DNA of 64,000 bases from Amphiscolops sp. MND2022 (taxonomy: Eukaryota): the NCBI GenBank assembly GCA_964187785.1, contig OZ076418.1:54808001-54872000 (forward strand), in the 5' to 3' direction. Shown here piece by piece: positions 41,560-61,204 of the stretch; within the stretch, counting starts at the first letter, position 1; every line of letters begins with the position of its first letter. The notes under the pieces are model-generated. The model worked only from the letters and a program-made list of their open reading frames with translations, was not told the origin of the DNA and did not search any database. The translations under genes were made by a program, and so were the position numbers.

Positions 41560-43575
41560 TGTTTGTGAAGTGCTCTATTGTCTTTTGACTTATTAAGATT
41601 TTTGATGTACGAGTTTATTCAAGAAAAGAAATATAAGTCTCAATTCACTTTCAATTTACTTTCTAAAGTAATTATGCGAGTCCGATCAAGAATAATTATA
41701 AGCCTCAATTATAGTCTAATTCGTGAACTCTTAGTTCACTTTTCTTCTATTTTCTTGTTTGAAAACTAAAAGTAATCTCGTACTTAAAATTTTCGCGACT
41801 GTGCCTTCCTACACTTCAACAAAAGCTGTCTCAGGTGTGAGTTCGGATGGAAGGACTTTATTTCTACGACCCGGGAGAAGAGTGTGTTTTGGTTCAGAAA
41901 TATGTAAATTAAATCTGTTTTGGTTTATATTAAAGTTGTAATAAATGTCACTCATACAAAAGCAAAGTGCACAGATCAGCATGAATAGAAAGAAAATAAT
42001 TAAATCAAATCTAAAATCTATCTTTGAATAATACGAGTTAAGTTAGTTAGAAAGAAAGTAAGTTATTAAGTTGTTCTTGTGTTTTACCAGATCAAGAGGT
42101 GAAGCCTCTTTATAAGATGCAGCGATAGCTTGCAAGGTGTTTATAGTCCACTAATTGTCACGGACTGAAAAGAGAGCTACTTGCTTCTCTTGATTAAAGA
42201 ACAACAGATTGTTGTACTGGTTTTATAGAGTGTGCTATACAGCTACTCTTTGTCTCAGATTGAGAACTGTTCGACTTGAAGAGTCAAACAAAAACTAAGT
42301 TATTTAAGTCTCTTATAACCCAGCTAAAGCTGTGGTTCTTGGTTTAGAGTCAGTATATCTACCAGACTTTGGTTTAGAGTCTACTATAAAGCAGAGACTA
42401 TTCAATCTTTGTTAAACAAAGACGGTATGATAGCTTCTGTTCGAAGTCAAAAGTCAATTAGAACTCCAACGTAAGAGAAGGTTTGCTTTAACGATGAAAG
42501 CAGATTTTTGTTTTGTTTTAGATTGAAAATATTATAAGACTAAGACTTAGCTTGCCTTTACTTGAAGGCAGATTAGAAAATAGTTAAAGACTTTAATTGC
42601 TTCAATATGAAAGCAGAGTTGAAAAGCTTAAGACTTAATTTGTTTTGGCTCGAAAAATAAATCAAGATAAAATTGCTTCGCTTTGAAAGCGGATTGAAAA
42701 TCGTCTAAGACAAGTTTGCTTTAACAAGAAAGCAGGCTTGACAAAATATTCTAAGTTAAAATTGCTTTGCTTTGAAAGCAGGCTGAAAATCGTCAAACAT
42801 AAAATTGCTTTAACGAGAAAGCAGGCTTGACAAAATATTCTAAGTTAAAGTTGCTTTGATTTGAAAGCAGAGTGAAAATCGTCTAAGTTAAGACTGAGCC
42901 AAGACTTGTAAAAATTTAAGAGTTGCTGTTTAAAGTTTAAGTTAAGAAAAAGAAAAGACTTAGACAAAAAAAACACTAAGACAAAATAAGTTAAAGTTAA
43001 AGCTGAGAAAATATCTTAGAAAAATGAAAGCTCCAAAAGAAAATTGAAATGGTTTAACTAACAGTTACTGCGCCGCGCTGATGAAGGGGATTGAACCCAA
43101 GAAGAAAGATTGAGAAGTAGGAGTGTTCGGATTGATCGATTTTGTATTATTCCAAAAGAAGAGCTCTGAGAGGTGAAAATTTCGTCTGCTTTTATACTAA
43201 ATTTGACCGCTTCGTCAACCAATAAAATTCAATCACAGTTGTGATTGGCTGACGAGCATGACGTCATATGACGTCAAGTCATATGACTATACAAACGAAA
43301 GTGTTTTGTATGTGTTATTCGCAGGCATAGTGTCCACGACAAAATGATGTCATTTGACGTCATGATCAAATAAAGAATGTGTGCAGCGTCGCTGAACAAA
43401 GCGAGTGAACACGTTCGAGCGTGTTCAAAATTCAGAGCTGAGCGAGAAATTAATGAAGATAAACAGCGCAAGTTACAAAAGATAAAATTACATGTTACAA
43501 GTTTTAGAGTTTTATTCTTTTTGGATTTTGACGGTAAGTTTCTTTCTTTTTGTTTGCCATAAGTCGCACACGACA
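41560..43575 (-). repeat. 3' LTR (2016 bp)
   Basis: Direct repeat of 58085-60097 with only about half a dozen differences seen by eye. The minus strand reads TGTCGTGTGCG...CTTCACAAACA. Confidence 0.97.
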
Positions 43576-43590
43576 TCTCACCCGGGTTTC
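43576..43590 (-). other. Putative polypurine-tract position (atypical: GAAACCCGGGTGAGA)
   Basis: It abuts the TG start of the 3' LTR but is only partly purine-rich. Confidence 0.4.
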
Positions 43591-43633: not shown

Positions 43634-44621
43634 TCACTTTGATTCTTCCAGGTTAACTTCGATGAACATCGTGTCATTCAGGATGAATGGGGAGTTGCTT
43701 TTGAAAAGTTGGCTGTGTGGGAAAGGGGATGATGAAGAAGGGGAAACATATGCTCGGGTTTCCATAGCTTGTACAAGGTCGTACAAAACAGGCTGAGTTT
43801 TTGTGGTCTTTTGGATCTATTGTTTTTGTTCAAGTATCAGTAGTCTCACTCAAATTTATCACATTGATTCGAAATATTAGTTTGAAAGGCCAAGGAAGAA
43901 TTGGGTCGAACTCACCAGGAAGGATGGTAATAACTAATGAAGCGCTTTCTCCAGTGGCAGGAGAGCATCCGTAAGGATAAAGCTTCATATGAAAACGGTA
44001 CCCGTGAGTTGATGTATAAAATGGAGGGCTCTGAAAATTGCAGGGTAATTTGGGGTGAGGGTCGATACCCTTTTGCAATTCTAGTTCAGCAGCCTTTGCG
44101 TTATCAAACATAAGGCTGAAGGAGCAAATTCTCCAGATTAGTTTTTTGTCTCTTCCGCAATCAATACTGTGAATACGGTCATAGAGGTCCATTATTAGGC
44201 ATTTGAAGGGTTTCAATTCATCAAGTCGTCTTTGTGTATCTGTTGATTCGGGTTCGGTTGGCGAAGGGGTATGAAGAGGAGTATTTACAGGTTGTTCAAC
44301 AGTAGGTGTTATTGTCTTCTTTTGAAGATTTTGGACGACAATTTGGAGTTGTTGAATAGTTCTGTCCTGTTGTCTTCGTAGGTTCTTTTCGTGCTCTAGT
44401 TGTTCGGACAGATTTGCAACTAGTAATTGCGTTGCGTGCAGGTATTGAGCGGTTTTGAGATTGCTGAGTGGAAACTTGCTGACGAGCATTTTCATCTGGG
44501 CGAGGTCGTTGTCGGTGCATGAAGGTAGGCTGGAATTTGTTATTTGATTTCGTATTGTTGTTATCTCATTTTCTACAGCAGCTAGTCTAAGAGTGGATTC
44601 TTCTAATAATTGTTTTTCCAT
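43634..44621 (-). pseudogene. TRAF-like protein (coiled coil + MATH/TRAF-C domain), with a nonsense codon and a frameshift near the C-terminus
   Basis: ORF 43830..44621 has heptad-rich N-terminal stretches, then LIWRI, SPPFYTSTHGYRFHMKLYPYG, SASLVITILPGEFDPILPWPF. Past TGA 43830-43832 the frame continues TKTIDPKDHKNSACFVRP...CFPFFI. A shifted frame gives the final strand FILNDTMFIEVNLEESK*. Confidence 0.85.
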
Positions 44622-44623
44622 TT

Positions 44624-45085
44624 TCAGATGAAGGCAGAGATAGCCCGTAGGGGTACTGATAATCTCTGATGTTTAAGAGTAGTATTTTCAATAGTAAATT
44701 CTTGTCTTTTTGAGTCCCAGAAGATAATTCTCCACTGATTGACTTCTTCTTTGAGAGTATAGTTGAGATTGTAATGAAATCTGGGATTTCTGGTTATCGA
44801 GTATTTTTGAGCGGCTTCTTCACTTCTTTTTTGTTTTTCTAAAGCTTGTTTCAATGAATATTGTGTTTTCTTCTTTTTAATACTACCGTTAAAGACAAAT
44901 GTATTAAGATTATTTGGAGGTGTAACAGTGGCGTCTAAGATTGTTTGACTGAGTGGTCGTTGAGGAATAGGAGATTCACATGAAGTGATGTCAAACATAG
45001 GAAAATCGAGTATGTCCTTCTCAGTTAGAGTTTCCTTTGAAAGAAGAAGTTCCAGATCTGATGAAAGAGAGGTGTGGTCGGTCAT
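44624..45085 (-). CDS. Unknown 153-aa accessory ORF
   Basis: Open frame lying 26 nt after the env stop and ending 2 nt before the TRAF-like ATG. Confidence 0.6.
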   Translation of the reverse strand: MTDHTSLSSDLELLLSKETLTEKDILDFPMFDITSCESPIPQRPLSQTILDATVTPPNNLNTFVFNGSIKKKKTQYSLKQALEKQKRSEEAAQKYSITRNPRFHYNLNYTLKEEVNQWRIIFWDSKRQEFTIENTTLKHQRLSVPLRAISAFI

Positions 45086-45111
45086 TCTTTGCTAAAAATA
45101 GAATACAAAAG

Positions 45112-47247
45112 TTAAATTGGTGATATTGTGTCTAAACGATTAGTTGCTGGCAGACGATTTATGACAGGGTAGATATGTTCAGAAGCATCTTGATTGTCTG
45201 TACTGAATGTTGTCATCGGAATATCTTTTGTAGAAGGATTGAACATTGAATGGAAAATTGAAACCATAAAAAGATTGTAAGTTGCAGATAGTAGAATTTT
45301 ACCGAATCCAACAGACGCTCCAGTAAGTCGGTGTATTTCAAAGGCTCTGACAATAGTTACTGTCACATCGATAATTAATTTTATGAAAAGGAAAACTGCA
45401 AACCAAATTCCACATTTTTCTAGCCAATATCCAATTGTACCAAATGTTTGTCTAAATTTGCTTTCAAAGTAACCAGGAGATATCATGTTATCAACAAAGA
45501 AATCCATTTTTGGTGCGTAGTATGTGTATCCTTCAGGTCCTTTCTTTGAGTGTGAAGGGACAATGAGTTTTCTTGTGAATTTTTGTAAAGCATTCTTCGA
45601 TGCAGAACTCATGAGGATGTTGTCCCAAAATTCGGTTAGCTGGCCTTTCGTGTACATTCCAGCGTTGATTGATTGGGGAAACTGATCCCTTGTGAATGGT
45701 GCTACATCTTTTGGCGAGAAGATAGCAGGTCTATCTCTATGTGTGATTTGCGGCGTTAGTGAGAACCAAGAGTTCTTATCGTCCATGTCCATTTGAAAAA
45801 GGTTCTTTATGTGGTCCGAACAGTTCTGAGGCATCGCATCAGGTAAAGTTTGCCTCGTGATGGGATCTACAAATTTGATTTGTCCTTTGTAAAATATGGG
45901 TATCTTATCGTAGCACTCGTTCATCGTGTGAAGAGGTGATCTGACTAGAGGACAAGAGTAAAGCCATGCAAGGCTTCCATCAGTTTCTAAGAACATTGAT
46001 CTGTTTCCAGTCAACATATATCCAGCTAGTCTTGAGTTCTCAAGTGAAAGCATCAGAATAGTAAGTATGTGTGATCGTTCTTGTTCACACTGATTTTTCA
46101 AAAGATGAAGTTCTGAGGCTTTGAGTGCTCTGGAGCTCTCAAAGAAAAGATAGTCCAGTTTAGTTCCTTGTTGTAATTCGTAGTCCATATTCAACCATGT
46201 TCCATAATATGGGTCTGAATGGTAGTTACTAGCAAACCAGAGTTTACTATGGCCTGGGTCATCTCTTTCTTGATCATTAGGGGAATAGTGCATCATGTGA
46301 ACTCTGTCCTCTTGTTGGATCATATTTCGTCCAGTTTTCATGTCAAATCCACCATAAAGGATAGCAACAAACAAAGATTCATAGGTTGTGGGATATACAT
46401 CTGATGGTTTATTACAAAGTTTTTGTGGTCTGTTTTTGACTTCAAAGAGATATTTGTTTTCTGAATTGTTCTTGCTAACAATATAATACTGGTCGTCATT
46501 TTTGATCATGTTTACGTACTCTTCTTTCAGTACGGTGAGAATACAGTTGTCTGGATTATCCCATATATAAGCATATGGGTCGAGTGAGGTGCTATCACAT
46601 CCGAGTTCATCTAGTTTGCAGGGTAGAGGTTGTCCATTTCTGTTCATTATAGTTCCGTCTCTGAGTTTGACGTTCAGAGTAATATCTTGGATGTGAGTCT
46701 CGAAGGTATCTTTTTCAATCCATTCAAAACCATCACATTCATTTTTGAATGTGTCGTCTGCATCGCCATTCCATCTAAGATGTTGTTCAATTACTCCTTT
46801 TTTCATTGTAATCTGATGATTTAGTAGAGTTATTGGTGATCCTTCAGCTGCGAGTCTGCATTGTGCAGGCGATAAATCGAGATATGAGGTAATAGTCTTT
46901 TGTTTGATATCGATGCTGGAGTGGTCGTGCATTCCACAATAGAATCTGTTCCTTTGATGTTTGACACTGCATATTGTAGCGTTAATTTCTGTTCGAAAAT
47001 GTTTTGTGTACATCTTGACTTTGGCATGGCTCATGTCTATGTTCTCAGGAGCCACGTTACAAGGTTTGACTTGGTTGAGAGAGTAGAGATTGTTTTCTGA
47101 CATTTCACTGCAATCGTAATGTGAGACTGTGACTGTAGGTGCGATATCATCCAGTATGGGCTGCTTTTGGTCGGCGTAGATGAATTTTATTGAAAACATC
47201 AAAATAAAAATAACCAAATATTTACAGTATATCTTTTCACTATCCAT
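45112..47247 (-). CDS. env: Envelope glycoprotein, chuvirus-G / herpes-gB-like (class III fusogen)
   Basis: N-terminal signal peptide, Cys-rich ectodomain with HYDC...LYSLNQVKPC...ICSVKHQRNRFYCGMHDH, and C-terminal hydrophobic segments (WFAVFLFIKLIIDVTV...). This pattern matches my recollection of chuvirus-like glycoproteins. Confidence 0.8.
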   Translation of the reverse strand: MDSEKIYCKYLVIFILMFSIKFIYADQKQPILDDIAPTVTVSHYDCSEMSENNLYSLNQVKPCNVAPENIDMSHAKVKMYTKHFRTEINATICSVKHQRNRFYCGMHDHSSIDIKQKTITSYLDLSPAQCRLAAEGSPITLLNHQITMKKGVIEQHLRWNGDADDTFKNECDGFEWIEKDTFETHIQDITLNVKLRDGTIMNRNGQPLPCKLDELGCDSTSLDPYAYIWDNPDNCILTVLKEEYVNMIKNDDQYYIVSKNNSENKYLFEVKNRPQKLCNKPSDVYPTTYESLFVAILYGGFDMKTGRNMIQQEDRVHMMHYSPNDQERDDPGHSKLWFASNYHSDPYYGTWLNMDYELQQGTKLDYLFFESSRALKASELHLLKNQCEQERSHILTILMLSLENSRLAGYMLTGNRSMFLETDGSLAWLYSCPLVRSPLHTMNECYDKIPIFYKGQIKFVDPITRQTLPDAMPQNCSDHIKNLFQMDMDDKNSWFSLTPQITHRDRPAIFSPKDVAPFTRDQFPQSINAGMYTKGQLTEFWDNILMSSASKNALQKFTRKLIVPSHSKKGPEGYTYYAPKMDFFVDNMISPGYFESKFRQTFGTIGYWLEKCGIWFAVFLFIKLIIDVTVTIVRAFEIHRLTGASVGFGKILLSATYNLFMVSIFHSMFNPSTKDIPMTTFSTDNQDASEHIYPVINRLPATNRLDTISPI

Positions 47248-47528
47248 TATCTACTAATGAAAACGGTACTCCGAAAATACTATAAAAGGTTTAAGAAAAG
47301 AAAGGTAGACTTGCTAACCTTGAAAAGGAAGCTTTGCTTTCGATGAAGCAGTGAGAAGAGCAGCTTTGCTTTCAATAGAGCAGCGAGAAATCTGTAGCAC
47401 TTGGCAATACAGAATGTTTGTTCAAATCGAACTGAAAAGAGAGCAAGAATGAATTCTGCTTGAAGTTGACAACTTAGTCAAAGATGTGAAATGGATGATA
47501 GTCCTTTTCGTGAAAGGCTTTGATGAAT

Positions 47529-48255
47529 ACACGTCTAAAAACCGTGTCTTCTCGCTTAAGAAAATATGATCTGTTTTAAACAGACAAAAAGAGCGAGGAG
47601 TTATTTATAGACGGCAGAGTTTGACACTTAGGTCGTTACCGTCTCTTCTTGCAAGGTAAAAGGAAAAGTAGCACACGTCTAAAAACCGTGTCTTCCTGCT
47701 AAAAGGAACGTGATCTCTTTGAGACCAAGAAGAAAAGAAAAATAGGAGCAGGGAGTTATTTATAGACGGCAGAGATTGATACTGAGATCGTTACCGTCTC
47801 TTCTTGCCTGAGAAAGAGAGAGTTAAGAAGGTTAAGTAAAGGCAAGGCTACACGTCCAAAAAACCGTGTCTTCCCACCATAGAAAAAGTCATCTAAGTGG
47901 CCAGCTTAGATCAAAGAGAGAAATAAAGGTAGGGAGTTATTTATACACGGCAGAGTTTGATACGAACCGTCGTTCGATCGTTACCGTGTCTTTGTCAGAC
48001 TTTTGTGACAAATTGTAATATACGTCTATACACCGTATCTTCGTTGAGCTTTGCAACGGAGTTATTTATACACGGCAGAGTTTGATACTGAGATCGTTAC
48101 CGTGTCTTCTTGCAAGGATAAAATTGAATACGCACGTCCAAAACCCGTGCCTTCCTGCTAGAGAGAAAAGTGATCTATTTTAGATCGAATAAAAATGAGA
48201 GCAGGGAGTTGTTTATACACGGCAGAGTTTGATACAAAGATCGTTACCGTGTCTT
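47529..48255. ncRNA. Five-unit tandem structured element (~150-bp units, multiple covarying stems) upstream of env
   Basis: Each unit has hairpin A, a CTTC.../...GGAG stem, TTATTTAT, and hairpin B with a conserved internal loop CAGAGTTT/GTTA. Compensatory base changes occur between units. Confidence 0.6.
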
Positions 48256-48340
48256 GCACCTAAAAAGAAGTTGAATAAAAGGTTTAATTAATCACAGTAC
48301 ACAGTAATAAAGAGAAAATAATAAAAGGTAGAGAACAGAT

Positions 48341-48739
48341 TTATTTTTGCAAGCTGAGGATTTCTTTTATTTTTGCAATGTAGAATTCTTCAAAGGAGCC
48401 AAGTCCCGTTTCCATAAAAGAAGACAATTCTTCTAGGAGTGGTAGATCAAAGAGTTGTATATTCGTCTCAGGGCTATCGATGTAGACTGATAAGGCGATG
48501 GCTAATTCAGCAAAGAATTTTGTTTTCTCTTCTACTCTTATGAAGACTTTGGTTTTGGGCTTTAATACTGTATAGCCTCTAGCTGTAAGCCAAAATTGGT
48601 ATCGGTATGACCACTGCAGTTCCTTCACAATTAATAGTTCAGGGCTTTTGATGGGGTCGACTAAATTATAGATTGATACTGGAAGTTTTAGTTTAACTGT
48701 TTCAATTGCGTCTTCTTCCCAGAGGTTGTGGATGAACAT
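48341..48739 (-). CDS. Unknown 132-aa accessory ORF (paralogue of 48879..49199)
   Basis: Open frame that aligns by eye to the 106-aa ORF (LQWSY/LKWSF; ELAIALSVYIDSPETNIQLFDLPLLEEL / QLSEALDNYAEEPESHITQFQLHILGEL). Confidence 0.7.
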   Translation of the reverse strand: MFIHNLWEEDAIETVKLKLPVSIYNLVDPIKSPELLIVKELQWSYRYQFWLTARGYTVLKPKTKVFIRVEEKTKFFAELAIALSVYIDSPETNIQLFDLPLLEELSSFMETGLGSFEEFYIAKIKEILSLQK

Positions 48740-48878
48740 TGATTTTTATTGATTTCTCCGTTTTCTATTTTGAGGGAGTTGATTTCTTGCTAATTGGGGG
48801 AGTAGTTGTGGAAGGATGCGTCTGGTCCAAATTTGTCTGACGATTTCTTCTCGTAGACTGAAGCTCATTCAATTTTAT

Positions 48879-49199
48879 TTATGCTGCTGTTGTATCGGCT
48901 AACTCTCCAAGGATATGGAGTTGAAATTGGGTGATGTGTGATTCAGGTTCTTCAGCGTAATTATCCAAAGCCTCAGATAGTTGTTCTCGGAGGAATCTAT
49001 TGTTAGCGATTTCTAAGGTGGAGACTTTGCTTTTGTTTTCTACAGGGTGTACTGTTATCAGAATGAAACTGGGTTTGATAAAGGACCACTTGAGTTTGAT
49101 GATATTGAAGTTTTCAGTGATGCCTGAAGGAGTAGTTATTTTAAAGGGGCAGTTGAATTCTACTTCATCAATTTCGCCTTCATCAAAAAATATGTCCAT
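48879..49199 (-). CDS. Unknown 106-aa accessory ORF
   Basis: Open frame whose ATG directly follows the TAA of the upstream ORF. Paralogous to the 132-aa ORF. Confidence 0.7.
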   Translation of the reverse strand: MDIFFDEGEIDEVEFNCPFKITTPSGITENFNIIKLKWSFIKPSFILITVHPVENKSKVSTLEIANNRFLREQLSEALDNYAEEPESHITQFQLHILGELADTTAA

Positions 49200-49415
49200 T
49201 TAAATACTATTGTCAGCATTCAGGAATGCATCCGTTGGTGCGTTTCCAAAGAATAGAAAGATGTGATGGAAATAGTCCCAGTATATAGACGTTGGGGGAA
49301 CAGTGATAATTCTCTTCTGTTTTGTTTGGTGGTGCTGAAGGGAAACGTGAAAAGTCAAATTTCGGAAATCTTGTCTAACTATTCTGTAGAAGTCGTTGTT
49401 TATCTTGATGTACAT
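49200..49415 (-). CDS. Unknown 71-aa accessory ORF
   Basis: Open frame with a TAAATG stop-start junction to the next ORF. Confidence 0.5.
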   Translation of the reverse strand: MYIKINNDFYRIVRQDFRNLTFHVSLQHHQTKQKRIITVPPTSIYWDYFHHIFLFFGNAPTDAFLNADNSI

Positions 49416-50962
49416 TTGCTAGATTCGTCAGTTGATTGTGTAGTTGTAGGCTATGCTAAAATACAAACAAAAACATGCGCATCGTTAAAACGATCGCTTT
49501 AAAGTTAGACAGAACATTTCTTTTGCTCAAAACAGAGGAGCTAGAGGTCAAAAAATGATTCGTGATATTAATTGAAGAATGAGACGCTTGGTGACTAAAA
49601 TGAGATTACAAGTTACAAATAAAGTCATAAATTACTTTTGAATACAACAAAGGAGTTTTGCGGCGAGATAATTAAATTGTTCTATTAAGGAGGAGCTGAA
49701 GTAGTTGGCGGCTAAAATGAAAGATAGTTATGGAGCTGAAAAGATAATAGACAAATACGTGAACAAAGACTTTAAATTACTTTTTATGTGAGATAAAAGA
49801 ATACATGAACAAAGCAATTATTTAATGAGTGGAGTTGTATGGTGGCTGAAAACAGAAGATGGTTGAGAACAAAAGTGATGCGTGAACAAAAGTTAAATTG
49901 AAGAAAGAAGTTGATGAGATAATAAAAGTTTGAACAAAGCATTATTTCATTTATTTATCTAGCTAAAGCAGGTTTGTCAAAAGATTTTATTTTATTATTA
50001 CGAACTAAAGAACAATAAGCTTCACAAAGCAAGTTATTTAAAACAGTAAAATGATGAGTTGTAACAGATGGCTAGGAGATATTCACAGAGGATTTTTGTT
50101 TTTGTAGTTTCTTCTTTGTTTTCTTCATTTTATCTGCTAATTTCTGGGCTGTTAGGTCGGGTGTTTTTCGGGTGTTATTTTCTGATTCTTGATTTTTTCT
50201 GACTATACAACTACGAAGTAGTCCCACCGCCATTGAACGAAAAATGAAAGTTTGAAATTTTTTGTTTGGTGTGTGCGCTCGCAAATTTTTGGGTTGGGTA
50301 GCCGGGAAATTTTTTGAGGTAGGGGGTGCTGAAAATGAAATTTAAATCCCTTTGTTTTTCAGAACGTTTTGATAATGAGTGCTCTTAATGACTTGGATTT
50401 CCCTATTCTTGATGTCAGTGGGGAAGTCTGGCAAACATTTTTCGGCGTTGAGGAACTGACTGCTCTAAAGGCTCTAGTTGAGGAACTTCAGCAGCCCATG
50501 CTAGGGATGGGAAGTATCTATCCCTTGGATGTAGGGCCTCAATTAAGTGCTGCTTTACAAATAGTTACGGAGTCAGAAGACGTGAGTTGTTGTTTATTTC
50601 ATTATTTATAATAGTTTTCATCTTCTGTTTCTGTAGTAGGAATGCAGTGTCCCTTTACAATTCTTTCTGTTTCAGTGGATATCCGTCTTATCGAATGGTG
50701 GGTTTCGGAGCAGACTTGCCATCAGAGAGCTTGAGAATATTCAATATTCTTATTCTATGTTGACTGCCCTCGCCAAAAGGGAGATCGTTATTCGATGGAA
50801 TATGGGGGACTATGTTCCCGTCATTAATTTTCTGCGAAAGCCGTTATTTTTAAGCGGATAGTTTCTTGTATATAGTTTTGTGTGCTGATGTGTATTTACT
50901 TTTTTGTTTATATTTTTATTCGGATCCTCTCCTGTAATACATTGTATAACTAAATATAATGT

Positions 50963-53900
50963 TTAGTCTTTGTATCCTTTTCTTTCTAGATCCCGTAGTG
51001 AGCTGTAAGGATGAGAGCGCTTGTATTTTGCTTTTACTTTTGACGTGAGATCAGCAACTTTATTTTTCTTTTTTGGCGATGAAGAAGTAGATTGCTCAGC
51101 TTCATGAAATTGCGGCGTTGTCCTCAAAATAGTAGGAACACGAATAGGCATAGGAGTCATAGGAAGTATAGGAGTTTGTAGCGGCGGCAATGGTGAAATT
51201 GTTAAATTTTGATAATTATGATCATCATTAGTAGACGTAGCAGGAGATTGAATTCCTGAGTCAGCAGTAGGTGAAAGAGTAGCGTGGTTTTTGTTCATTT
51301 CTTGATAATTAGTATTTTCTTGTAGCGGCGATATGATGAAAGGCATTACATCTAGGGAACATTTTTGTTGATTTGAATTGTAGTCATTTATTTGCGACTG
51401 CACTAGATGTTTGTAGAAATCACTATCTTTTGTTATAGGCGGCGTATAGTTAGTGATTAGAGGAGGGAGTCTTTCCTCTTTAGGAAAATATTCAATTAGG
51501 TGATTGCGATGAGTAACTTTAACGTTTTCTGGGTTAGCGTCCTCTTGAATTTCGTACGTCGTGTTTGTTATTTGTTTAGTTACTGTAAAAGGGCCAACAC
51601 GTAATTGTTTTAACTTTTGTGATCTGCTTAAGTCGGCAGTGTGATTCTCTAAGAATACTTTTTGTCCGATGTTGATAGGTCGTCCGAGTTTGAATCGGTT
51701 TCTGTATTCGTGTGCTTTAGAAGTAATTTGGCGGCATCGTTGATAGGTTGACGAATAGATTCGTTTGAAGTCGTTTTCACGAGCAATGAGTTCGTCTGAG
51801 AGTTGTGGCCTGAGTAATCGATCCAGGGATTTGTTCGGTAGTTGGTTTTCGCTGTGTGTATGGGGTTTCAATCCTTCACAGTAGTCGGATCTGCATTGTT
51901 TGTTCTTGTCTCGTATTAGTCCAAGTTTTAACGTCATAGGAACTTGTGGTTTTGTCCCGAACACTATTTCATATGGGGTAAGTCCCGTAGTGTAGTTTAC
52001 ACTTGTGTTATGAGCGAATGCAAATTTCGGTGCTAGTTTTGACCAATTATTACCTGACTCGTTAGTGAAGTTTCTCCAATATCGTGTAAGGTGCTGATTT
52101 TGTACTTCTACTTTTCCGTTTGTCCATGGTGAGTAAGTTGTACGTGGTGCGAGAGTTATTCCGAATTCTTTAGTCCAGTTGATGAAGTCACTGTTGATAA
52201 ATGCTGTCCCGTTATCGTGTATTATCTTCTGAGGGATTCCATAGGATGTGATCCATTTTTCTAATGCAGTAATAGTAGCTTGTGCGCTAGTATCTTTTAC
52301 TGGGTAGACACCAATGAATCTTGAAAATGCGTCAACTACTACTAAGCAATGGTTGTTAGAATTGCTACTAGGCCTGAGCGGGCCTTTATGGTCTATATGA
52401 ATGGTTTTGAAAGGTGTAGTTTCAAGTTCTCCCCATTGTTCCAAGGGAGCTTCGTGTAAGTCATGACGTTTTGACTTATTGGTTTGACATTCGATACAGT
52501 CTTCTATGAGATAAACTATCCATTTGTATCGTCCTGGCCAGAAGAAATATTGTCTAATATTTTCAAAGGTCTTAAATATTCCAGGATGACCACTGTGGCT
52601 GTGTGTGTGAGCAAGTTTGAAAAGTGGTAGAAACAATGATAGAGGAACACATATTTTCATCTCAGTTTTGCTTGTTTCCTGAACTGTCTCGTTGTAGCAT
52701 AGGAGGTTGGTTTCTTCGTCTATAAAGAGTTGCTCAAATCGGTTGAAGTATGACAGTAGTGCTTTAGATTGATTGATATCATGTGTTTTTGTTGGTCGTT
52801 TATCTGATTTCTTTATCCAACTGCGTACTTTTTGTAGTACTGGATCATTGAGTTGTTCTTCAACTAATGTAGTTACATCTAGATCAGCAGTTTTTGCAAA
52901 ATCACTCAATTTTTGTATCAATTCCTTTGTGTCTACCTCTGGGTGTAATTCTGAGTCTATGTTGGATTTTAGAATTGGTTTTCGTGACTGGTTTCTTCGG
53001 ATTGATTCGTTTGCAAGTGAGAAATCGTGTAAGAATTCGGAGTCCTTCTGATCGAAGTTTAGTTCTGCTATTTCGTTGTCGCTGTTGTAGCCGTCATCTT
53101 GTTGTTCTTCAATTTCGCTGTAGGTTTCCTCTTCGATGGTGTAATTTGTGAAGTAGGGGCAAACATCTGAGCAAAGTCGTTTATATTGGTTTATTGTCTT
53201 GCCGAGTTTAAAGCAATCGGTCATGTCTTGCATTGTAGCTAAGACTTCATTGTCTTCTATGTAATCTTCGACATATTGTTCGTCACCATCATTCTTTAGG
53301 TGTAGGATTTGTCTATCGTTTCCATGTTGGCAGATTATCGGAAAGAAGTCGTTGCATGAGATATCTTGGCTATCTTCGTGTTTGATAGTGTAATGCATCT
53401 GGTCTCCCTTTTCATCATAGAATGATATCTCTTTCGGTATTTCTTTATGCTGTAGCTGTAATTTGTTGATGTCGGACAGTGTTACGTTTCGGCTAAGTAT
53501 ATCTGGGAAAGCTAAGTTTGAACCTGGCGTCCAGATTATCTTCAAGTTGTGAAATTTTGTTATTATAACTTGGTACTTGAAGAACCGATGAGAAAGTTGT
53601 CCTTTTCGTCCCCATAAGTAGAGAATGGGTTTGTGGTCACAGTATAGGTAGATTGGAAATGGTGAGCCAATAATGTAGTGCTCATAGGTTTGTAGTGCAG
53701 ATACAATACCACAAAGTTCTCGGTGGAGGGTAGACATTTTTTGTTCTGCTTTATCAAAGACACGAGAGTTGAAAGAGACTATTCGTTTTCCTTCTGGAAA
53801 TTGTTGAACTAAGATACATCCAGTCCCTACATTCGAAGAGTCAACGTGAATATGAAAAGGGTATTCAGTTGAAGGAACTGCTAAAATAGTATCTTCTGAG

Positions 53901-56422
53901 ATTCTTTCTTTTATCTGGTTGAAAAGTGTTTCGTGTTGTTCAGTCCATTTGAAAGGTGTAGTGTCTTTTATCAATTCATAGAATGGTTGACTATCGACGT
54001 GTAGATTCTTGATATAGCAGCTATAAAAACCTAAACATCCAAGTACTTTCATTACGTCTCGTTTGCATTCCGGTGACTTCAAATTCTTCAAGTCTTGTAC
54101 TCTTTTAGCTACTGGTTGAATTCCGTCTTGAGATATAACATGTCCCAGGAATTTTACTTTTCTCAAGAAGAAGTGTGTCTTGTCAGGTGCGGCTTTTAGT
54201 CCGCCTTTTCGTAGGAGTTGGTGATACTCGTGTATGATGGTGAACATCTCGCCTTTGGTTTGCGATTGGAGAAGACTATCATCAAGATAGGTGATTGCTT
54301 GTTTCTTCTTTACAAGTGGTTCGAAGTTAATCGCCATCATTCGGCTGAACCATTGAGGGAGTCCACAAAGGCCATAGAATCCAACTTGATAGGTGTATTG
54401 TTTTCCACCTACGATGAAACTAGTTAGTTTCTGAGTTTCTTCACTAAGAGGTACTTGGTGATATGCACAAGAAAGATCACTTGCTGTAAAATACTTGCCG
54501 TTGATTCTTGTCATAATCATTTGGACTGGCTCGAGTGGCCAAGAGTAGTTTGTTAAGTCAGTGATAGAATTTAGATATCTAGCGTCAATAACAAGTTTAA
54601 CATAGTCAGCTTTAGGTAAGAGAATGATTGGATTTACGAATAGTGAACCAAGCTCGTCGTCGTCTCCCATTTCTCTAATGATGCCCGTTTCTTGTAGTTG
54701 TCCAAGAAGTTTTTCAAGCTTATCTTTCAGATGGAGTGGAACTTTGCTAGGACGTTGTTTGCGGAGTTCTGAGTTTGGTTTTAGAGTGACGTGAAACTTC
54801 TGTTTGGTTTGACCAATATCGAATTTGTGTTGTGAGTATACATCTCTGGAGTCAATGATCATATCTATTAACATAACAAGTTCTTCGTCTTCTAAATCGG
54901 TGTATTGAAAATCGAATTGCTTGATGAAGTCTTTTATTTCTTGAGGTTGATATTGAAGGTAGTAGTCAATAAGATCATTGTTTAACTCTTTAGGTCTCAG
55001 TATTGGAAATTGTTCCTTACACGGAGGCTGACATGATTTTGAATCCTTGGTAAAGTCTGTTTCTAGTTCGTCCTTTTCATCCGTCCATTCGTTCGTATAG
55101 TTGTCAATTTTATCTTCTATAGAGTTCGTAGACTTGTTAGCTATTTTACAGTCTAGTTCATTCCTGGAGATGATCTGAATGAGAATGCCAGAGTCAGTGA
55201 AAGTGTCTTTCAGTATTTTCAGTACTTCATTCCAAGAGAGCTTGTCAAGTCCACAACCAATCTTTGGCATTGTTATTATATGAACATTGTTGAGGAGAGC
55301 GTGACCTCTCATGTTCTCGAGTGATATCCGAAGGTTCTCAAGAGTAGGTTTTTCAAAGAACTTGTTCTTTGTGACATGGTTGTATATGAGTCTATTTGCA
55401 TCATTATCCCAGAAGGGAATGACTGAACCAACAAAAGCTTTTGACTTGTAACAATATTCTTGTAGTCCACTGATGTGGTTGGTGATAGTTTCAGCAAATC
55501 CTTTACTCATTTTTGCATCTGCTGATATGCAATGAGCAATAGCTGCTTGGCTTTCAAAGATTGTATCATCGTTCCCATTAATGATACGTACACCATCTCT
55601 GAAGTCTGATTCGAGTGGTAGTGTCGAGTGTAGTAAAAAGCATTCGTTATACTGATCATTCTCAGATAGTATACAGTTAACCATTTTAACACAATCTTTT
55701 ATTTGGTACTTTGGTCGTTCGTAGTCTAGTATGTCTAATGCTGAGTATCCCAAAATTCCTTTGTCAAGAGTTATTTGATGATTCTTGTTGTTCTCCATTA
55801 GAATTGGTAGATATTGTTCTGACTGTGTGCAAAGAACATTTACAAAGTCTAGTCCTGAGTTAGTTACTTTTTGATGAGGGATGAAGGTTGTTCCTGGTGC
55901 AAAGTTTATTTGTTCATCTTCTGGACGGTATTTGTAGACACGAGATGTCTTAGCATCAACATGTATCTGATGTGGCACTCGTATTGCTCTGATTAGTGAC
56001 AAATAGGGGTAAGGTTTAGTAGCACAAAGACTGCCATAGCAAATTGTATTAGGAGTGTCTTTGAGTTCTAATGCAGGAATATCGAAATGGAGTTTAGAGA
56101 TATACTTTCTACAGAATTCAATACCCAACAAAATTGCTGTTTTGGTTTCTGTTATCCAAAGTTGTAGTTGAAAACAGTGTTCTCCATCAAAGTCAAAACT
56201 GAAGTTTAGTGTTGTGTGACCCAACATAGGTATTTCTTCTCCAGTGTATGTTCTAGTCTTTTGTTTGCTTCTTATTACTGTGATTGGTTGAAGAAACTGA
56301 GAAATTTCATAAAAAGTGCGATAATTAATGATAGAGCAAGCTGCTCCAGTATCGACCATGAATTCGATTTCAAGTCCACTATCTTTTTTAGAGTCTCCGG
56401 TGGGAAAATAGAAAACGTTCAT
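50963..56422 (-). CDS. pol: Pol: aspartic protease - spacer - macrodomain - RT - RNase H - integrase (GPF)
   Basis: Motifs in order: MVDTGA (PR); AHCISAD...MPKIGCGLD (macro); YLDD (RT); HVDSS...YCDHKP (RH); HTHSHSGH...CIEC, IHIDH, VVDAFSR, HDNG and KVE (IN); VGPF. The frame is open upstream to the slippery site at 56476-56482. Confidence 0.97.
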   Translation of the reverse strand: MNVFYFPTGDSKKDSGLEIEFMVDTGAACSIINYRTFYEISQFLQPITVIRSKQKTRTYTGEEIPMLGHTTLNFSFDFDGEHCFQLQLWITETKTAILLGIEFCRKYISKLHFDIPALELKDTPNTICYGSLCATKPYPYLSLIRAIRVPHQIHVDAKTSRVYKYRPEDEQINFAPGTTFIPHQKVTNSGLDFVNVLCTQSEQYLPILMENNKNHQITLDKGILGYSALDILDYERPKYQIKDCVKMVNCILSENDQYNECFLLHSTLPLESDFRDGVRIINGNDDTIFESQAAIAHCISADAKMSKGFAETITNHISGLQEYCYKSKAFVGSVIPFWDNDANRLIYNHVTKNKFFEKPTLENLRISLENMRGHALLNNVHIITMPKIGCGLDKLSWNEVLKILKDTFTDSGILIQIISRNELDCKIANKSTNSIEDKIDNYTNEWTDEKDELETDFTKDSKSCQPPCKEQFPILRPKELNNDLIDYYLQYQPQEIKDFIKQFDFQYTDLEDEELVMLIDMIIDSRDVYSQHKFDIGQTKQKFHVTLKPNSELRKQRPSKVPLHLKDKLEKLLGQLQETGIIREMGDDDELGSLFVNPIILLPKADYVKLVIDARYLNSITDLTNYSWPLEPVQMIMTRINGKYFTASDLSCAYHQVPLSEETQKLTSFIVGGKQYTYQVGFYGLCGLPQWFSRMMAINFEPLVKKKQAITYLDDSLLQSQTKGEMFTIIHEYHQLLRKGGLKAAPDKTHFFLRKVKFLGHVISQDGIQPVAKRVQDLKNLKSPECKRDVMKVLGCLGFYSCYIKNLHVDSQPFYELIKDTTPFKWTEQHETLFNQIKERISEDTILAVPSTEYPFHIHVDSSNVGTGCILVQQFPEGKRIVSFNSRVFDKAEQKMSTLHRELCGIVSALQTYEHYIIGSPFPIYLYCDHKPILYLWGRKGQLSHRFFKYQVIITKFHNLKIIWTPGSNLAFPDILSRNVTLSDINKLQLQHKEIPKEISFYDEKGDQMHYTIKHEDSQDISCNDFFPIICQHGNDRQILHLKNDGDEQYVEDYIEDNEVLATMQDMTDCFKLGKTINQYKRLCSDVCPYFTNYTIEEETYSEIEEQQDDGYNSDNEIAELNFDQKDSEFLHDFSLANESIRRNQSRKPILKSNIDSELHPEVDTKELIQKLSDFAKTADLDVTTLVEEQLNDPVLQKVRSWIKKSDKRPTKTHDINQSKALLSYFNRFEQLFIDEETNLLCYNETVQETSKTEMKICVPLSLFLPLFKLAHTHSHSGHPGIFKTFENIRQYFFWPGRYKWIVYLIEDCIECQTNKSKRHDLHEAPLEQWGELETTPFKTIHIDHKGPLRPSSNSNNHCLVVVDAFSRFIGVYPVKDTSAQATITALEKWITSYGIPQKIIHDNGTAFINSDFINWTKEFGITLAPRTTYSPWTNGKVEVQNQHLTRYWRNFTNESGNNWSKLAPKFAFAHNTSVNYTTGLTPYEIVFGTKPQVPMTLKLGLIRDKNKQCRSDYCEGLKPHTHSENQLPNKSLDRLLRPQLSDELIARENDFKRIYSSTYQRCRQITSKAHEYRNRFKLGRPINIGQKVFLENHTADLSRSQKLKQLRVGPFTVTKQITNTTYEIQEDANPENVKVTHRNHLIEYFPKEERLPPLITNYTPPITKDSDFYKHLVQSQINDYNSNQQKCSLDVMPFIISPLQENTNYQEMNKNHATLSPTADSGIQSPATSTNDDHNYQNLTISPLPPLQTPILPMTPMPIRVPTILRTTPQFHEAEQSTSSSPKKKNKVADLTSKVKAKYKRSHPYSSLRDLERKGYKD

Positions 56423-56469
56423 ATGAAAACGTGATTTGAAGTTACTTTCTTCATCTGGTTGCGGAGACC

Positions 56470-57762
56470 TTAGTAGTTTAAAGCAAAGTAGTTGGAGATT
56501 GAGTTTACCATCTCTTGAGAGTCGTCATCAATGAATTGCACATTGTTAGAGAGAGCATTAGAATTGTTCTGCGGGAAATTTCGGTTATATTGAAAATTGG
56601 AGTTGTTATTCTGCCTTGCAGGAAAGTTGAAGTTATTTTGCCCAGTTCGCTGATTCTGTCCTTGATTAGAGTTACTCTGGTTGTTATGATTCTGGTTGTT
56701 GAAATTTTGGTTTCTATTATACGGCTGACTAAAGTTGTTATTATACCTTTGCGAAGAGTTGGAGTTGTGGTAGTTTTGCGATCCGAAGTTCGGTCCCTTT
56801 CTCTTGTTGTAGTCATTGGTGAAGGTTGGCTTTTTCTGCTGGTTATCACGATTGTATTGACGTTTTCGTTCATCATCGAAGGCTTTAGTTCTACAATATT
56901 GCAGTGTATGCCCGTTTCGCCTACAGTAGTGACAGAAGCGAGTTGCATTCTGTCTGGACTTATTATTCACATCGTTGGTTCGTGTGTTGGCTTGATTTAA
57001 AGCATTCACTTGTTGTTCTTTCAGAAGTGTTGAAAGTTCTCTGACTTGTTTCTCTAACGAATCTAGTTTGGAGTTCTGCTCGTTAGTTGGATTTGGTACG
57101 AAATCTGAGCTTACTGTATAGACCAAGTCCTTGTTGGCTATGTGGTCTTTGAAGTTATCCCAAGTTGTGTTAGGATGTTCTATCAGGTATTCGTGAGCTT
57201 TTCTTCTAAGTCCTGAAGGGGTTAGTCCCTTGGTTGTGAAGTCAATATACTTTTGATTTCTCAAGTTTTGTTGAGCGCCTCTTTCATCTTGATTAGCTCC
57301 GGCATCGATCGGCCATCCTTTGTCAACTGCTTGTTTGACTCGGTGATAGAAATTTTTGATTAGTTCTTCTTTTCCTCTGACACAGTTTTCAGCAGTTATT
57401 CTGTGTCTGTATTTATCTCTGTCATCTGAGAAGCGAGTTATGAAGGCTGTTCTGACTTGAATCCAAGTAGGTAGTGGGTTACCTACGTTAAATCCTTCGT
57501 ACCACTCTGCGGCTGGTCCGCGGAGGAGAGACGAGAAAAGTGCTTTCTTTCTGAAGAGGTATCTAGCTGCTTCGCCAGCATCATTCGGTGGTGATCCGAG
57601 AGAGAAGTCAATTTTATTTTCTACTGTTAGAAGAAATGATTTAACATCTTGGTCTGGGTCGTCCCCAGAGAACTTGTCCAATGCCAGGTCAGGAAAAGAG
57701 ACTGCGTTCTGAGCCATTCTGAGGGTTGTGATAGTTTGGTTCTTCTTGTGATTGAGTTTCAT
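56470..57762 (-). CDS. gag: Gag with C-terminal CCHC knuckle and Asn/Gln-rich tail
   Basis: Retrotransposon-gag-like LDKFSG...LLRGPAAEWY, knuckle CHYCRRNGHTLQYC (C-x2-C-x4-H-x4-C), and position between the PBS and pol. Confidence 0.95.
   Translation of the reverse strand: MKLNHKKNQTITTLRMAQNAVSFPDLALDKFSGDDPDQDVKSFLLTVENKIDFSLGSPPNDAGEAARYLFRKKALFSSLLRGPAAEWYEGFNVGNPLPTWIQVRTAFITRFSDDRDKYRHRITAENCVRGKEELIKNFYHRVKQAVDKGWPIDAGANQDERGAQQNLRNQKYIDFTTKGLTPSGLRRKAHEYLIEHPNTTWDNFKDHIANKDLVYTVSSDFVPNPTNEQNSKLDSLEKQVRELSTLLKEQQVNALNQANTRTNDVNNKSRQNATRFCHYCRRNGHTLQYCRTKAFDDERKRQYNRDNQQKKPTFTNDYNKRKGPNFGSQNYHNSNSSQRYNNNFSQPYNRNQNFNNQNHNNQSNSNQGQNQRTGQNNFNFPARQNNNSNFQYNRNFPQNNSNALSNNVQFIDDDSQEMVNSISNYFALNY
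56476..56482 (-). promoter_or_regulatory. -1 ribosomal frameshift slippery heptamer T TTA AAC
   Basis: An X XXY YYZ heptamer in the gag frame, one codon before TAA. The -1 frame (FKLLRSPQPDEESNFKSRFHMNVF) is open into pol. Confidence 0.85.
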
Positions 57763-58085: not shown

Positions 58086-60097
58086 GTTTGTGAAGTGCTC
58101 TATTGTCTTTTGACTTATTAAGATTTTTGATGTACGAGTTTATTCAAGAAAAGAAATATAAGTCTCAATTCACTTTCAATTTACTTTCTAAAGTAATTAT
58201 GCGAGTCCGATCAAGAATAATTATAAGCCTCAATTATAGTCTAATTCGTGAACTCTTAGTTCACTTTTCTTCTATTTTCTTGTTTGAAAACTAAAAGTAA
58301 TCTCGTACTTAAAATTTTCGCGACTGTGCCTTCCTACACTTCAACAAAAGCTGTCTCAGGTGTGAGTTCGGATGGAAGGACTTTATTTCTACGACCCGGG
58401 AGAAGAGTGTGTTTTGGTTCAGAAATATGTAAATTAAATCTGTTTTGGTTTATATTAAAGTTGTAATAAATGTCACTCATACAAAAGCAAAGTGCACAGA
58501 TCAGCATGAATAGAAAGAAAATAATTAAATCAAATCTAAAATCTATCTTTGAATAATACGAGTTAAGTTAGTTAGAAAGAAAGTAAGTTATTAAGTTGTT
58601 CTTGTGTTTTACCAGATCAAGAGGTGAAGCCTCTTTATAAGATGCAGCGATAGCTTGCAAGGTGTTTATAGTCCACTAATTGTCACGGACTGAAAAGAGC
58701 TACTTGCTTCTCTTGATTAAAGAACAACAGATTGTTGTACTGGTTTTATAGAGTGTGCTATACAGCTACTCTTTGTCTCAGATTGAGAACTGTTCGACTT
58801 GAAGAGTCAAACAAAAACTAAGTTATTTAAGTCTCTTATAACCCAGCTAAAGCTGTGGTTCTTGGTTTAGAGTCAGTATATCTACCAGACTTTGGTTTAG
58901 AGTCTACTATAAAGCAGAGACTATTCAATCTTTGTTAAACAAAGACGGTATGATAGCTTCTGTTCGAAGTCAAAAGTCAATTAGAACTCCAACGTAAGAG
59001 AAGGTTTGCTTTAACGATGAAAGCAGATTTTTGTTTTGTTTTAGATTGAAAATATTATAAGACTAAGACTTAGCTTGCCTTTACTTGAAGGCAGATTAGA
59101 AAATAGTTAAAGACTTTAATTGCTTCAATATGAAAGCAGAGTTGAAAAGCTTAAGACTTAATTTGTTTTGGCTCGAAAAATAAACTAAGATAAAATTGCT
59201 TCGCTTTGAAAGCGGATTGAAAATCGTCTAAGACAAGTTTGCTTTAACAAGAAAGCAGGCTTGACAAAATATTCTAAGTTAAAATTGCTTTGCTTTGAAA
59301 GCAGGCTGAAAATCGTCAAACATAAAATTGCTTTAACGAGAAAGCAGGCTTGACAAAATATTCTAAGTTAAAGTTGCTTTGATTTGAAAGCAGAGTGAAA
59401 ATCGTCTAAGTTAAGACTGAGCCAAGACTTGTAAAAATTTAAGAGTTGCTGTTTAAAGTTTAAGTTAAGAAAAAGAAAAGACTTAGACAAAAAAACACTA
59501 AGACAAAATAAGTTAAAGTTAAAGCTGAGAAAATATCTTAGAAAAATGAAAGCTCCAAAAGAAAATTGAAATGGTTTAACTAACAGTTACTGCGCCGCGC
59601 TGATGAAGGGGATTGAACCCAAGAAGAAAGATTGAGAAGTAGGAGTGTTCGGATTGATCGATTTTGTATTATTCCAAAAGAAGAGCTCTGAGAGGTGAAA
59701 ATTTCGTCTGCTTTTATACTAAATTTGACCGCTTCGTCAACCAATAAAATTCAATCACAGTTGTGATTGGCTGACGAGCATGACGTCATATGACGTCAAG
59801 TCATATGACTATACAAACGAAAGTGTTTTGTATGTGTTATTCGCAGGCATAGTGTCCACGACAAAATGATGTCATTTGACGTCATGATCAAATAAGGAAT
59901 GTGTGCAGCGTCGCTGAACAAAGCGAGTGAACACGTTCGAGCGTGTTCAAAATTCAGAGCTGAGCGAGAAATTAATAAAGATAAACAGCGCAAGTTACAA
60001 AAGATAAAATTACATGTTACAAGTTTTAGAGTTTTATTCTTTTTGGATTTTGACGGTAAGTTTCTTTCTTTTTGTTTGCCATAAGTCGCACACGACA
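58085..60097 (-). repeat. 5' LTR (about 2013 bp)
   Basis: Direct repeat of 41560-43575, ending ...GTCGCACACGACA at 60097 on the plus strand. Confidence 0.97.
59712..59884 (-). promoter_or_regulatory. Probable U3 promoter: TATA box, CCAAT boxes and three TGACGTCA (CRE) palindromes (same in the 3' LTR at 43190-43362)
   Basis: Minus-strand TATAAAA at 59712-59718, CCAAT/ATTGG about 30-55 bp upstream, and TGACGTCA at 59781, 59791 and 59877. Confidence 0.6.
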
Positions 60098-61204
60098 TAT
60101 TACATTTGAGCTTATAGACGCATTTTGCCCGGACAAGAGTTGGTCTATAGTTATAACGAAACTTTGCGCTTCGATTAGATTAGCTTCGCTCGCCCCTTCA
60201 AGTTCAGGACTTCAAGTGACTAGGCTATGTAGGTTGAGTGTTTAGGCTCAAGGTAAAAAAGAAAGTGGAGCAACTGTATTTTCAGCATCCAAAACCAATG
60301 GTTCGTAGGCATCGCCTCGTGTTGGTTTGGATGAGTGCAATACACTCACTAAAAATTATAAAAAAAGAGTTGATGCAAGAGCAACTTCAATAACTCTAGT
60401 CAATAATTCGTAGGCTTCGCCTCGTGTTGACTGGGATGGATGTGGTTCTCCTATTCGACTCGCAAAAACGAAAATAAGCACACAAATGAAACGGGCTGAG
60501 AAACCCACAAAAAAACAAAAAAAAGTTGAAGCAAGTGTAAATTCACCCATCTAGCCAGCAGTTCGTGGGCTTCGTCTAACGTTGGCTTAGATGGATGTGT
60601 TTCTCTTGTTAGGCTCACAAAAAAACCAAAAAAGGGGGGCCTAGACAACTCCAATTAAGAAAACTTCAAAATATGTTGAAAAGGTTAAGGGGTTGACAAA
60701 AGACCAATGCATGACAACTCTTGAGTAGCAGCAAAACTTTTGAGTTGCTGCATGGCATGCAGAGTATCTTTGCCAAACTACAAAAAATAATGAGAAATTA
60801 CACAAACCATTCTGCCTAAAATAAAAAATTAAATGACATTAGATTAGATTAGAACTTAGAAAAAAGTGAAAAAGTAGGAGTCGGTCCAAATGCATCTGTA
60901 GACAATAGTTCGTAGGCTTCGCCTCGTGTTGGCTAGGTTGGTTTTGAAGCGCTTGTTCCACTTCAAAAAATACAAAAAATTGAATAAAACAAAAAAACTG
61001 AAAAACTCCAAAATCCAAAAATAGGAAAAGAAAGAGTCGGTGCAACTGCATCTTATTCATCTGAAGCCAGTGGTTTGTAGGCTTCGCCTCGTGTTGGCTT
61101 GGATGGCTTTGATGCTCTTGTCCACTGGCAAAAAAACGAAAAAATCCAAAATGAAAAATCGAACAAAAATGCAAATCCAAAAACTTTTTTTTGGGGCCCA
61201 GATA

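Follow-up and report, generated by a model that had tools for sequence, protein, structure and literature searches.

The window, i.e. the whole stretch of DNA that was analysed, comprises 64,000 nucleotides of contig OZ076418.1 from Amphiscolops sp. MND2022. On its minus strand it carries an 18.5-kb Ty3/gypsy LTR element with a class III env, such that the sense strand of the element is the minus strand of the window (Table 1). Paired LTRs, gag, pol in the order PR-RT-RNaseH-IN and an env open reading frame (ORF) were all found, which places it among the Ty3/gypsy elements with env. The element belongs to a large family (at least about 140 env matches), referred to as family 1 in the following. 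It was compared with a sister family (family 2), whose env is 59-60% identical, and with a third family (family 3; env P0009, 56% identical to that of the window), which is more distant in pol (68% vs 80%). A quick env tree of 735 columns was used for orientation only. For the env clusters P0002, P0014 and P0015, a search of the window's genome at a very strict cut-off yielded no own copies.

Table 1. Features of the element and of its array. Positions refer to the window, except in the last row.
Feature	Position	Strand	Remarks
5' LTR	58086..60098	-	CCAAT, TATA (about 59718)
Donor-like GTTAGT in 5' LTR	59584	-	motif; use presumed
3' LTR	41561..43576	-	99.65% identity to 5' LTR
gag + pol block	50963..57762	-	
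gag	56470-57762	-	
pol	50963-56524	-	protease, RT, RNase H, integrase, Ty3/gypsy order
orf71	49200..49415	-	small accessory protein, 71 aa; kept in sister family (about 41%)
orf106	48879-49199	-	106 aa; paralog of orf132
orf132	48341..48739	-	accessory protein, 132 aa, no known family; paralogs: orf106 and two sister-family ORFs
AATAAA overlapping orf132 stop	48340..48345	-	just upstream of array; putative poly(A) site
Five-unit structured array	47529..48253	-	stems located, folded, compared among copies
Hairpin A, units 1-5	47529-47547, 47673-47691, 47850-47869, 48020-48038, 48132-48150		
CTTC/GGAG stem (S), units 1-5	47548-47600, 47692-47755, 47870-47936, 48039-48061, 48151-48208		
Hairpin B + tail, unit 1	47600..47645	-	
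Hairpin B + tail, unit 2	47755..47800	-	inner pair U-A 57 / C-G 25
Hairpin B + tail, unit 3	47936..47990	-	9-base paired apical-loop extension covaries (A-U 56, G-C 23)
Hairpin B + tail, unit 4	48061..48106	-	39/46 bases match sister-family unit
Hairpin B + tail, unit 5 (first in sense order)	48208..48253	-	model score 72 bits
Stem S + hairpin A, unit 1	47529..47600	-	not present in sister family
Stem S + hairpin A, units 2-5	47673-47755, 47850-47936, 48020-48061, 48132-48208	-	layout as unit 1
Pyrimidine tract + YAG acceptor	47432..47445	-	97 bases downstream of array; use presumed
Splice donor	47313..47319	-	exon ends 47319, GT starts 47318; used in four env-less copies
Acceptor before env start	47280..47290	-	38-39 bases past donor; use presumed
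env	45112..47247	-	class III fusion protein; Pfam Monjiviricetes_fusion, E 4e-39
Acceptor before orf155	45092..45100	-	joined to 47319 donor in four genomic copies
orf155	44624..45085	-	acidic N-part, basic patch, conserved C-terminal domain
TRAF/MATH-domain ORF	43830..44621	-	3' end of element
Third-family array	L309:3465-4215 (G000:C4:25745100-25755099)	+ (sense)	nested in another locus examined

With five or more accessory ORFs, proven alternative splicing (see below) and a class III env, the host element is organised like a complex retrovirus. The protein encoded by orf132 is acidic. Counterparts of orf155 occur in all three families, and orf155 is a candidate regulator that may be translated from spliced RNA. 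The models of orf132 (pLDDT 75) and orf71 (pLDDT 76) gave no structure match above Z 4.7 or E 0.009, and both were without match in an Atlas search; Pfam and PDB searches with orf155 gave no family match. Among the accessory proteins no recognisable RNA-binding fold was found (best Z 4.7 and 4.4). Alignments of orf132 and orf71 matched the family-3 accessory ORFs weakly (E 0.016 and 0.059). The TRAF/MATH ORF has counterparts in all three families as well; in the window's copy a stop lies ahead of more TRAF-like codons. Many other copies of the element contain an extra orf106 paralog (about 290 bases more), which is missing from the copy in the window (48879-49199). Between protease and RT, at pol residues about 300-450, we found a weak Macro-domain match (E 0.085). 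The LTRs contain repeats of 43-46 bases with a short inverted core (59100-59400 and 42550-42880), and units resembling them are present at 47330-47460, within the short exon that separates the array from the env donor.

Read along the sense strand, each unit of the array consists of hairpin B, an A-rich tail, the variable stem S and hairpin A. Hairpin B is formed by a 7-pair helix, a 2-by-6 internal loop and a 3-4-pair helix with a bulged pyrimidine and a free apical loop, and is followed by the A-rich tail. A 30-base pattern derived from B matched five times in the window and not once in 100 shuffles. The shorter 16-base B motif had 994 matches in the genome (reversed control: 0), the first 100 of which were examined for B-bearing families. 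Folding z-scores ranged from -0.6 to -3.6 for the units and were -1.8 on the plus and -2.4 on the minus strand for the whole array. Since the folds are of modest energy, with little difference between the strands, the case for a structure rests on conservation and not on stability.

A sequence-only reading of the window had described five covarying units in which a hairpin A, an enclosing CTTC/GGAG stem and a hairpin B recur, and all stems that it listed were found in their places. Its enclosing stem of unit 3 was correctly positioned, but as written contains a C-A mismatch on the plus strand, which is a U-G pair on the minus strand. One side of the B internal loop, GTTA, turned out to be less constant than the supposed near-invariance: the copies have TTTA in 76/83 cases in unit 1, 31/83 in unit 2 and 40/82 in unit 3, such that the T-G pair closing the inner B helix is not kept. 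The variant TATAAACA noted for unit 5 is typical of the window's subfamily, while most copies have TATAAATA. A pseudoknot between the A loop and the tail was considered and dropped, as it was without covariation.

Five units are the common state of the array. Among 98 distinct family-1 copies, 89 had five units, 7 had four, one had two and L079 had three; array-less copies were not seen (0/98) in this sample, which was drawn from the best-scoring matches and thus favours intact arrays. L252, L281 and L294 were left out of the counting because the anchor was missing, and in L252 a deletion runs through part of the array. The unit spacings within family 1 are 126-183 bases and have no common phase.

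For the analysis of conservation we used 83 distinct arrays (104 loci were given, 2 of these were skipped and the remainder were duplicates). Recurrent changes, i.e. those present in at least 3 copies, affected 22/352 stem columns vs 97/359 other columns (Fisher p 7e-7), where the latter figure may be inflated by indels in the A-rich linkers. Rare changes in the same columns amounted to 157 in stems and 204 elsewhere. Two-sided changes were found in the outer (C-G/G-C) and the inner helix (U-A/C-G) of hairpin B, in the extension of B in unit 3 (A-U/G-C) and in the inner stem of unit 3 (G-C/A-U). Between the units, positions 1 and 2 of hairpin A are swapped, and four differing S cores occur. 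The selection on structure that had been proposed from the window was thus borne out. The proposed covariation was recovered in part upon addition of homologues: several two-sided changes were seen, but in 24 chosen B variants (263/264 cells paired) only two pairs covary, each of which may be one event, and the RNAalifold consensus retained the outer B helix only. The inner hairpins are looser and show several uncompensated breaks. U-G and C-A positions beside swapped pairs were perfected in no lineage. Judged from these comparisons, the array is real and evidently under selection for pairing, with few independent two-sided events.

Family 2 has only hairpin B and the A-rich tail, in 6-15 repeats with a period of about 51 or 60-61 bases. 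The repeats have the orientation seen in family 1 but occupy a different spacer, the one that separates orf136 from orf71. As family 2 is without hairpin A and stem S, these two are family-1 additions. Between the two families B is identical at 39/46 positions, compared with 29/45 for the best ungapped 45-mer of the other spacers and about 70% for pol DNA. Differences of B between the families are confined to loops, flanks, or both members of a pair. Among 389 family-2 units the helices and the internal loop are almost fixed, and variation is seen in the apical loop, at the bulge and at one position of the tail. A fixed internal loop together with a free apical loop suggests a recognition surface, for which this pattern would be expected. 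The conserved core of the array is hairpin B with its A-rich tail. The spacer after pol (50304-50343) contains a second non-coding motif common with family 2 (80% over 45 bases).

Immediately ahead of its env, family 3 has an array of its own that is unrelated and comprises 2-5 units (91 units in 29 arrays). Each unit contains a hairpin whose loop is able to pair 7 bases downstream (an H-type pseudoknot with invariant pairing), followed by three small stems with U-G/U-A/C-G and C-G/U-A variants. This array had no match in Rfam. A model of B matched neither the third family nor the remainder of a family-2 element (best E 1.7), and the word GTTTGATA common there was therefore treated as chance. 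In viral contigs we found 120 single 16-base B matches, none of them in arrays, and 0 matches of the long pattern; metagenome contigs yielded one short env fragment that does not include the spacer.

The sequence-only reading had pointed to Rfam for a family to which the array might belong. For positions 44000-52000 and E up to 10 no match to the array was obtained, and three unrelated weak matches fell outside of it. A literature search, with a scope excluding subscription papers and Repbase entries, found no description of the array. The array was also compared by eye with the consensus of Pistol, twister, hairpin, HDV, kink-turn, SECIS, IRE and Sm-site motifs, all of which were dropped. By its sequence signature the array is an uncatalogued, selected set of RNA-like motifs that is common to two families and has an analogue in the third.

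From the U-G wobble of the CTTC/GGAG stems it had further been claimed that the structure works only on the plus strand, antisense to the element. Most of the mid-helix G-U pairs do not support this. In favour of the plus strand there is one homologous mid-helix position, the invariant pair of CTTC/GGAG in all five units, plus a 3-copy variant. Four mid-helix positions favour the sense strand: the invariant U-G in B, position 5 of the unit-1 stem (75/80), the inner stem of unit 2 (78/83) and position 6 of the unit-3 stem (5/82). The rare changes split evenly between the strands (31 vs 32), as expected of a control. In the ensemble, hairpins B and A pair better on the sense strand and stem S on the antisense strand, the mean pairing probability being 0.83 in sense vs 0.64 in antisense for the B stems, and 0.82 in antisense vs 0.68 in sense for the S stems. 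In family 3 a C-A near the helix end in 35/91 units points to antisense; the pseudoknot loops of 1 and 7 bases suit the sense strand by the usual geometry of such folds. Overall the array more likely folds on the sense RNA of the element, according to a strand tally that is small and mixed.

Splicing of the element is recorded in genomic copies. Four env-less copies (L079, L272, L273 and L274/L018) lack exactly the stretch 47318-45092 that contains env, from the GT donor to the AG acceptor, from which it follows that the element splices its long RNA. They are not monophyletic: L018 is placed within a set of unspliced copies, and L272 and L273 stand apart. Their structure and placement indicate that the env-less copies go back to reverse transcription of spliced RNA, which happened independently at least twice. 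This proven intron is located on the downstream side of the array, and the array is retained in all four spliced retrocopies.

The array itself may be removed through splicing as well. In families 1 and 2 it is flanked by a poly(A) signal upstream and a conserved acceptor downstream. AATAAA or ATTAAA is present at the end of orf132 in 93/95 family-1 copies scored, and the YAG past the array was kept in 98/98 copies, which had been chosen by a fuzzy match to that very site. The splice donor at 47319 was kept in 93/98 copies, and 4 of the other 5 are the spliced copies. In 91/92 copies measured, the distance from this donor to the env acceptor is 38-39 bases (47318-47280 in the window), a very short intron if used; a donor-like word is found ahead of env in family 2 too. 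In family 2, AATAAA precedes the array in 38/40 copies and an acceptor-like end lies before orf71 in most copies; in family 3 the acceptor-like word was found in 23/29 and AATAAA ahead of the array in 0/29. The LTRs of families 1 and 2 contain a donor-like GTTAGT after the TATA, a putative donor. A probe for retrocopies spliced into the 47432 acceptor found none, as expected if the donor is located upstream of the primer site.

A fixed internal loop, a free apical loop, many copies and a position upstream of an acceptor fit a repeated protein site on intron-retaining RNA. We tentatively favour, as the leading possibility and short of regarding it as probable, that the array is a repeated protein docking site on the sense RNA, which would license intron-retaining RNA for nuclear export. 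Among the options named in the sequence-only reading, an RNA-export-type element would fit best. Transcripts would start in the LTR, and the LTR donor would be spliced to the acceptor just past the array. The array would thereby be spliced out of the mRNAs on the env side and be retained in genomic and partly spliced RNAs. One protein would bind to each B hairpin, with 5-15 copies providing avidity. The putative binder may be an accessory protein of the element (orf155, orf71 or one of the orf132 family) or a host export factor. Several observations count against this: the LTR donor is a motif only and no retrocopy spliced into the 47432 acceptor was seen; the accessory proteins are without recognisable RNA-binding fold and orf132 is acidic; TATA-like words per unit in two of three families and the 51/61-base period fit a DNA element; family 3 is without AATAAA before its array; and the S stems and the invariant CTTC/GGAG pair are better on the antisense strand. 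The question touched is how unspliced RNA of invertebrate LTR elements passes splicing, internal poly(A) signals and nuclear retention, for which the array is a candidate target, compact, made of multiple copies and with compensatory variants that occur naturally.

A precedent exists in the export elements of intron-retaining RNA (PMC3856414; PMC4588558). With the CTE of Mason-Pfizer monkey virus and the NXF1 intron, the array has in common a sequence-fixed internal loop, a donor-like word near the loop and a location, presumed for the array, on intron-retaining RNA; the CTE loops are duplicated in the virus, near a conserved 5' splice site (PMC4338338). It differs in that the CTE is a single hairpin with two loops, located close to the 3' end, in contrast to 5-15 separate hairpins in a spacer upstream of env. 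Rfam gave no match, and the two were set against each other by architecture and not by loop letters. For the C. elegans LTR element Cer1, the paper reports that CERV, made from spliced RNA, is required for export of the genomic RNA, and a word search in it returned no named cis RNA element (PMC10309623). The likeness to RRE/Rev and to CERV lies in the complex element, the small accessory ORFs and the alternative splicing. A used acceptor precedes orf155, which has a basic patch, but no Rev-like or RNA-binding fold was found in the accessory proteins, and the RRE, unlike the array, is a single branched structure. The RSV direct repeats, the musD MTE and the MLV PTE are likewise repeated or multi-hairpin cis elements outside the leader that have been tied to export, stability or packaging (PMC4588558; PMC3856414). 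They comprise, however, 1-2 copies of 115-1400 bases, whereas here a 46-base core occurs up to 15 times with a motif that differs between families. By analogy, the presumed working of the array was likened to CTE, RRE, RSV repeats and MTE, and it was assigned to none of them.

A more specific form of the docking idea is an own Rev/RRE-like system, in which an accessory protein of no known family binds the 5-15-hairpin array, and in which both partners are exchanged jointly from family to family. We consider this unlikely, if worth keeping in view. Families 1 and 2 have hairpin B and close accessory homologs in common, and in family 3 the array bears a pseudoknot and the homologs are barely recognisable. 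Kinship alone could yield this pattern, as there are three families only and family 3 is the more distant in pol. If a cognate protein indeed binds the array, this would be a new RNA-protein pair of uncatalogued families.

Among env-bearing elements, the Oikopleura elements Tor3b/4b with their Penv likewise have a regulatory spacer between pol and env; the consulted sections of the Tor paper describe no hairpin array, and in the present element the array is flanked by splice signals, and genomic copies document splicing (PMC4402516). Metazoan errantiviruses with HSV/gB-type env share the combination of a Ty3/gypsy pol and a class III env. The survey of these elements admitted pol-env gaps of up to 1000 bases, compared with the 3.7 kb with accessory ORFs and array found here, and the words tandem, stem-loop, accessory and splic are absent from the main text of that survey (PMC13524379).

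The main rival to the export reading is an explanation that we nevertheless hold to be unlikely: the array could act at the DNA level as a tandem internal promoter or enhancer that drives env (orf71 in family 2), its inverted repeats being protein sites on the DNA or hairpins at nascent-RNA starts. Tor3b/4b express env from an internal promoter, which in Tor4b lies in the spacer after pol (PMC4402516). The internal promoter suggested from the window alone fared unevenly with respect to TATA: TATAWAW is found in 4/5 window units and one TATA-like word per unit in 29/29 third-family arrays, but in 0/11 units of the family-2 copy scanned. The forkhead-like word RYAAAYA is present in 5/5 window and 9/11 family-2 units, but the forkhead-like position is A or G in 98/389 family-2 units. 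While the two family-2 periods are one helical turn apart, this 10-base step may be one event, and the family-1 spacings lack a common phase. Short LTR-like hairpin repeats lie downstream of the array, but the CCAAT boxes of the LTR promoters were not seen within it. The two-sided changes in stems and the swapping of S cores call for pairing and not for a duplex site, and the conserved acceptor past the array points to splicing from upstream. As a promoter, the array would be an unusual palindrome-array env promoter.

Ranked next, and rather unlikely, is a local regulator on the sense RNA that damps the upstream poly(A) site or the downstream acceptor (e.g. by U1 at the donor-like GUAA), blocks a 5'-3' nuclease, or recruits ribosomes for the next ORF on a sub-genomic RNA. 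The poly(A) signal ahead of the array and the acceptor after it in families 1 and 2 would suit such a role, but AATAAA is missing in the third family. A donor-like G|GUAA occurs in every B; GUAA is half buried in the B helix and is a weak donor. In published reports, U1 suppresses the poly(A) site of foamy virus (PMC3694450) and nuclease-resistant RNAs yield sub-genomic RNAs (PMC12397905), to which the H-type pseudoknot that the third-family unit can form might correspond. In families 1-2 there is, however, no covarying pseudoknot, the A loop being variable and its possible partner constant, and Rfam gave no xrRNA or IRES match.

That the array is a packaging, dimerisation or localisation signal on the genomic RNA, bound by Gag or a transport adaptor, appears improbable. 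It shares the logic of position with the export reading, and the four spliced retrocopies keep the array and were thus packaged with it; the RSV direct repeats have reported effects on both packaging and export (PMC3856414). On the other hand, the apical loops are free and not self-complementary, and partly spliced accessory RNAs would bear the array too. Moreover, packaging signals are mostly located in the 5' leader.

Still less probable is that the array represents a structured RNA made in antisense, a cluster of Pol III small RNAs or a new ribozyme that cleaves itself. The first and the last of these had been put forward from the window alone. The invariant CTTC/GGAG wobble and the A-rich loops on the plus strand, on which the S stems fold better, and AATAAA words downstream on that strand (48274-48320) would be compatible with antisense transcription, but the majority of the mid-helix wobbles are in favour of the sense strand. 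The fixed loop letters would agree with a catalytic core; the ribozyme was nevertheless not substantiated, as no ribozyme or small-RNA family of Rfam matched at E up to 10 and the hammerhead core CUGANGA occurred 0 times on either strand in families 1 and 2. Cleavage by a sense-strand ribozyme would, moreover, cut the genomic RNA 5-15 times. The A box and B box consensus of type-2 Pol III genes had 0 matches on either strand and no tRNA was found, and for a microRNA precursor the helices are too short.

A neutral tandem repeat, shared by the families through recent exchange and with apparent covariation from template switching, which can perfect inverted repeats, is the least probable reading: unit number changes fast (6-15 in family 2) and independent two-sided events are few, but the stem columns lack the load of recurrent changes, the U-G and C-A positions beside swapped pairs stay imperfect in every lineage, the differences between families fall in loops, flanks or both pair members, and the third family keeps an unrelated array at the equivalent place.

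Outside of the element, the window contains further repeats and ORFs. The element is inserted within a tandem repeat of 793-797 bases (about 22900-41500 and 60100-64000), and the ORF spacing at 1-7000 suggests a further repeat of about 1030 bases. The plus strand carries a separate RT ORF (965 aa) at 14841-17738, and the minus strand an ORF resembling the Pox_A32 packaging ATPase (Polinton-like) at 18504-19250.
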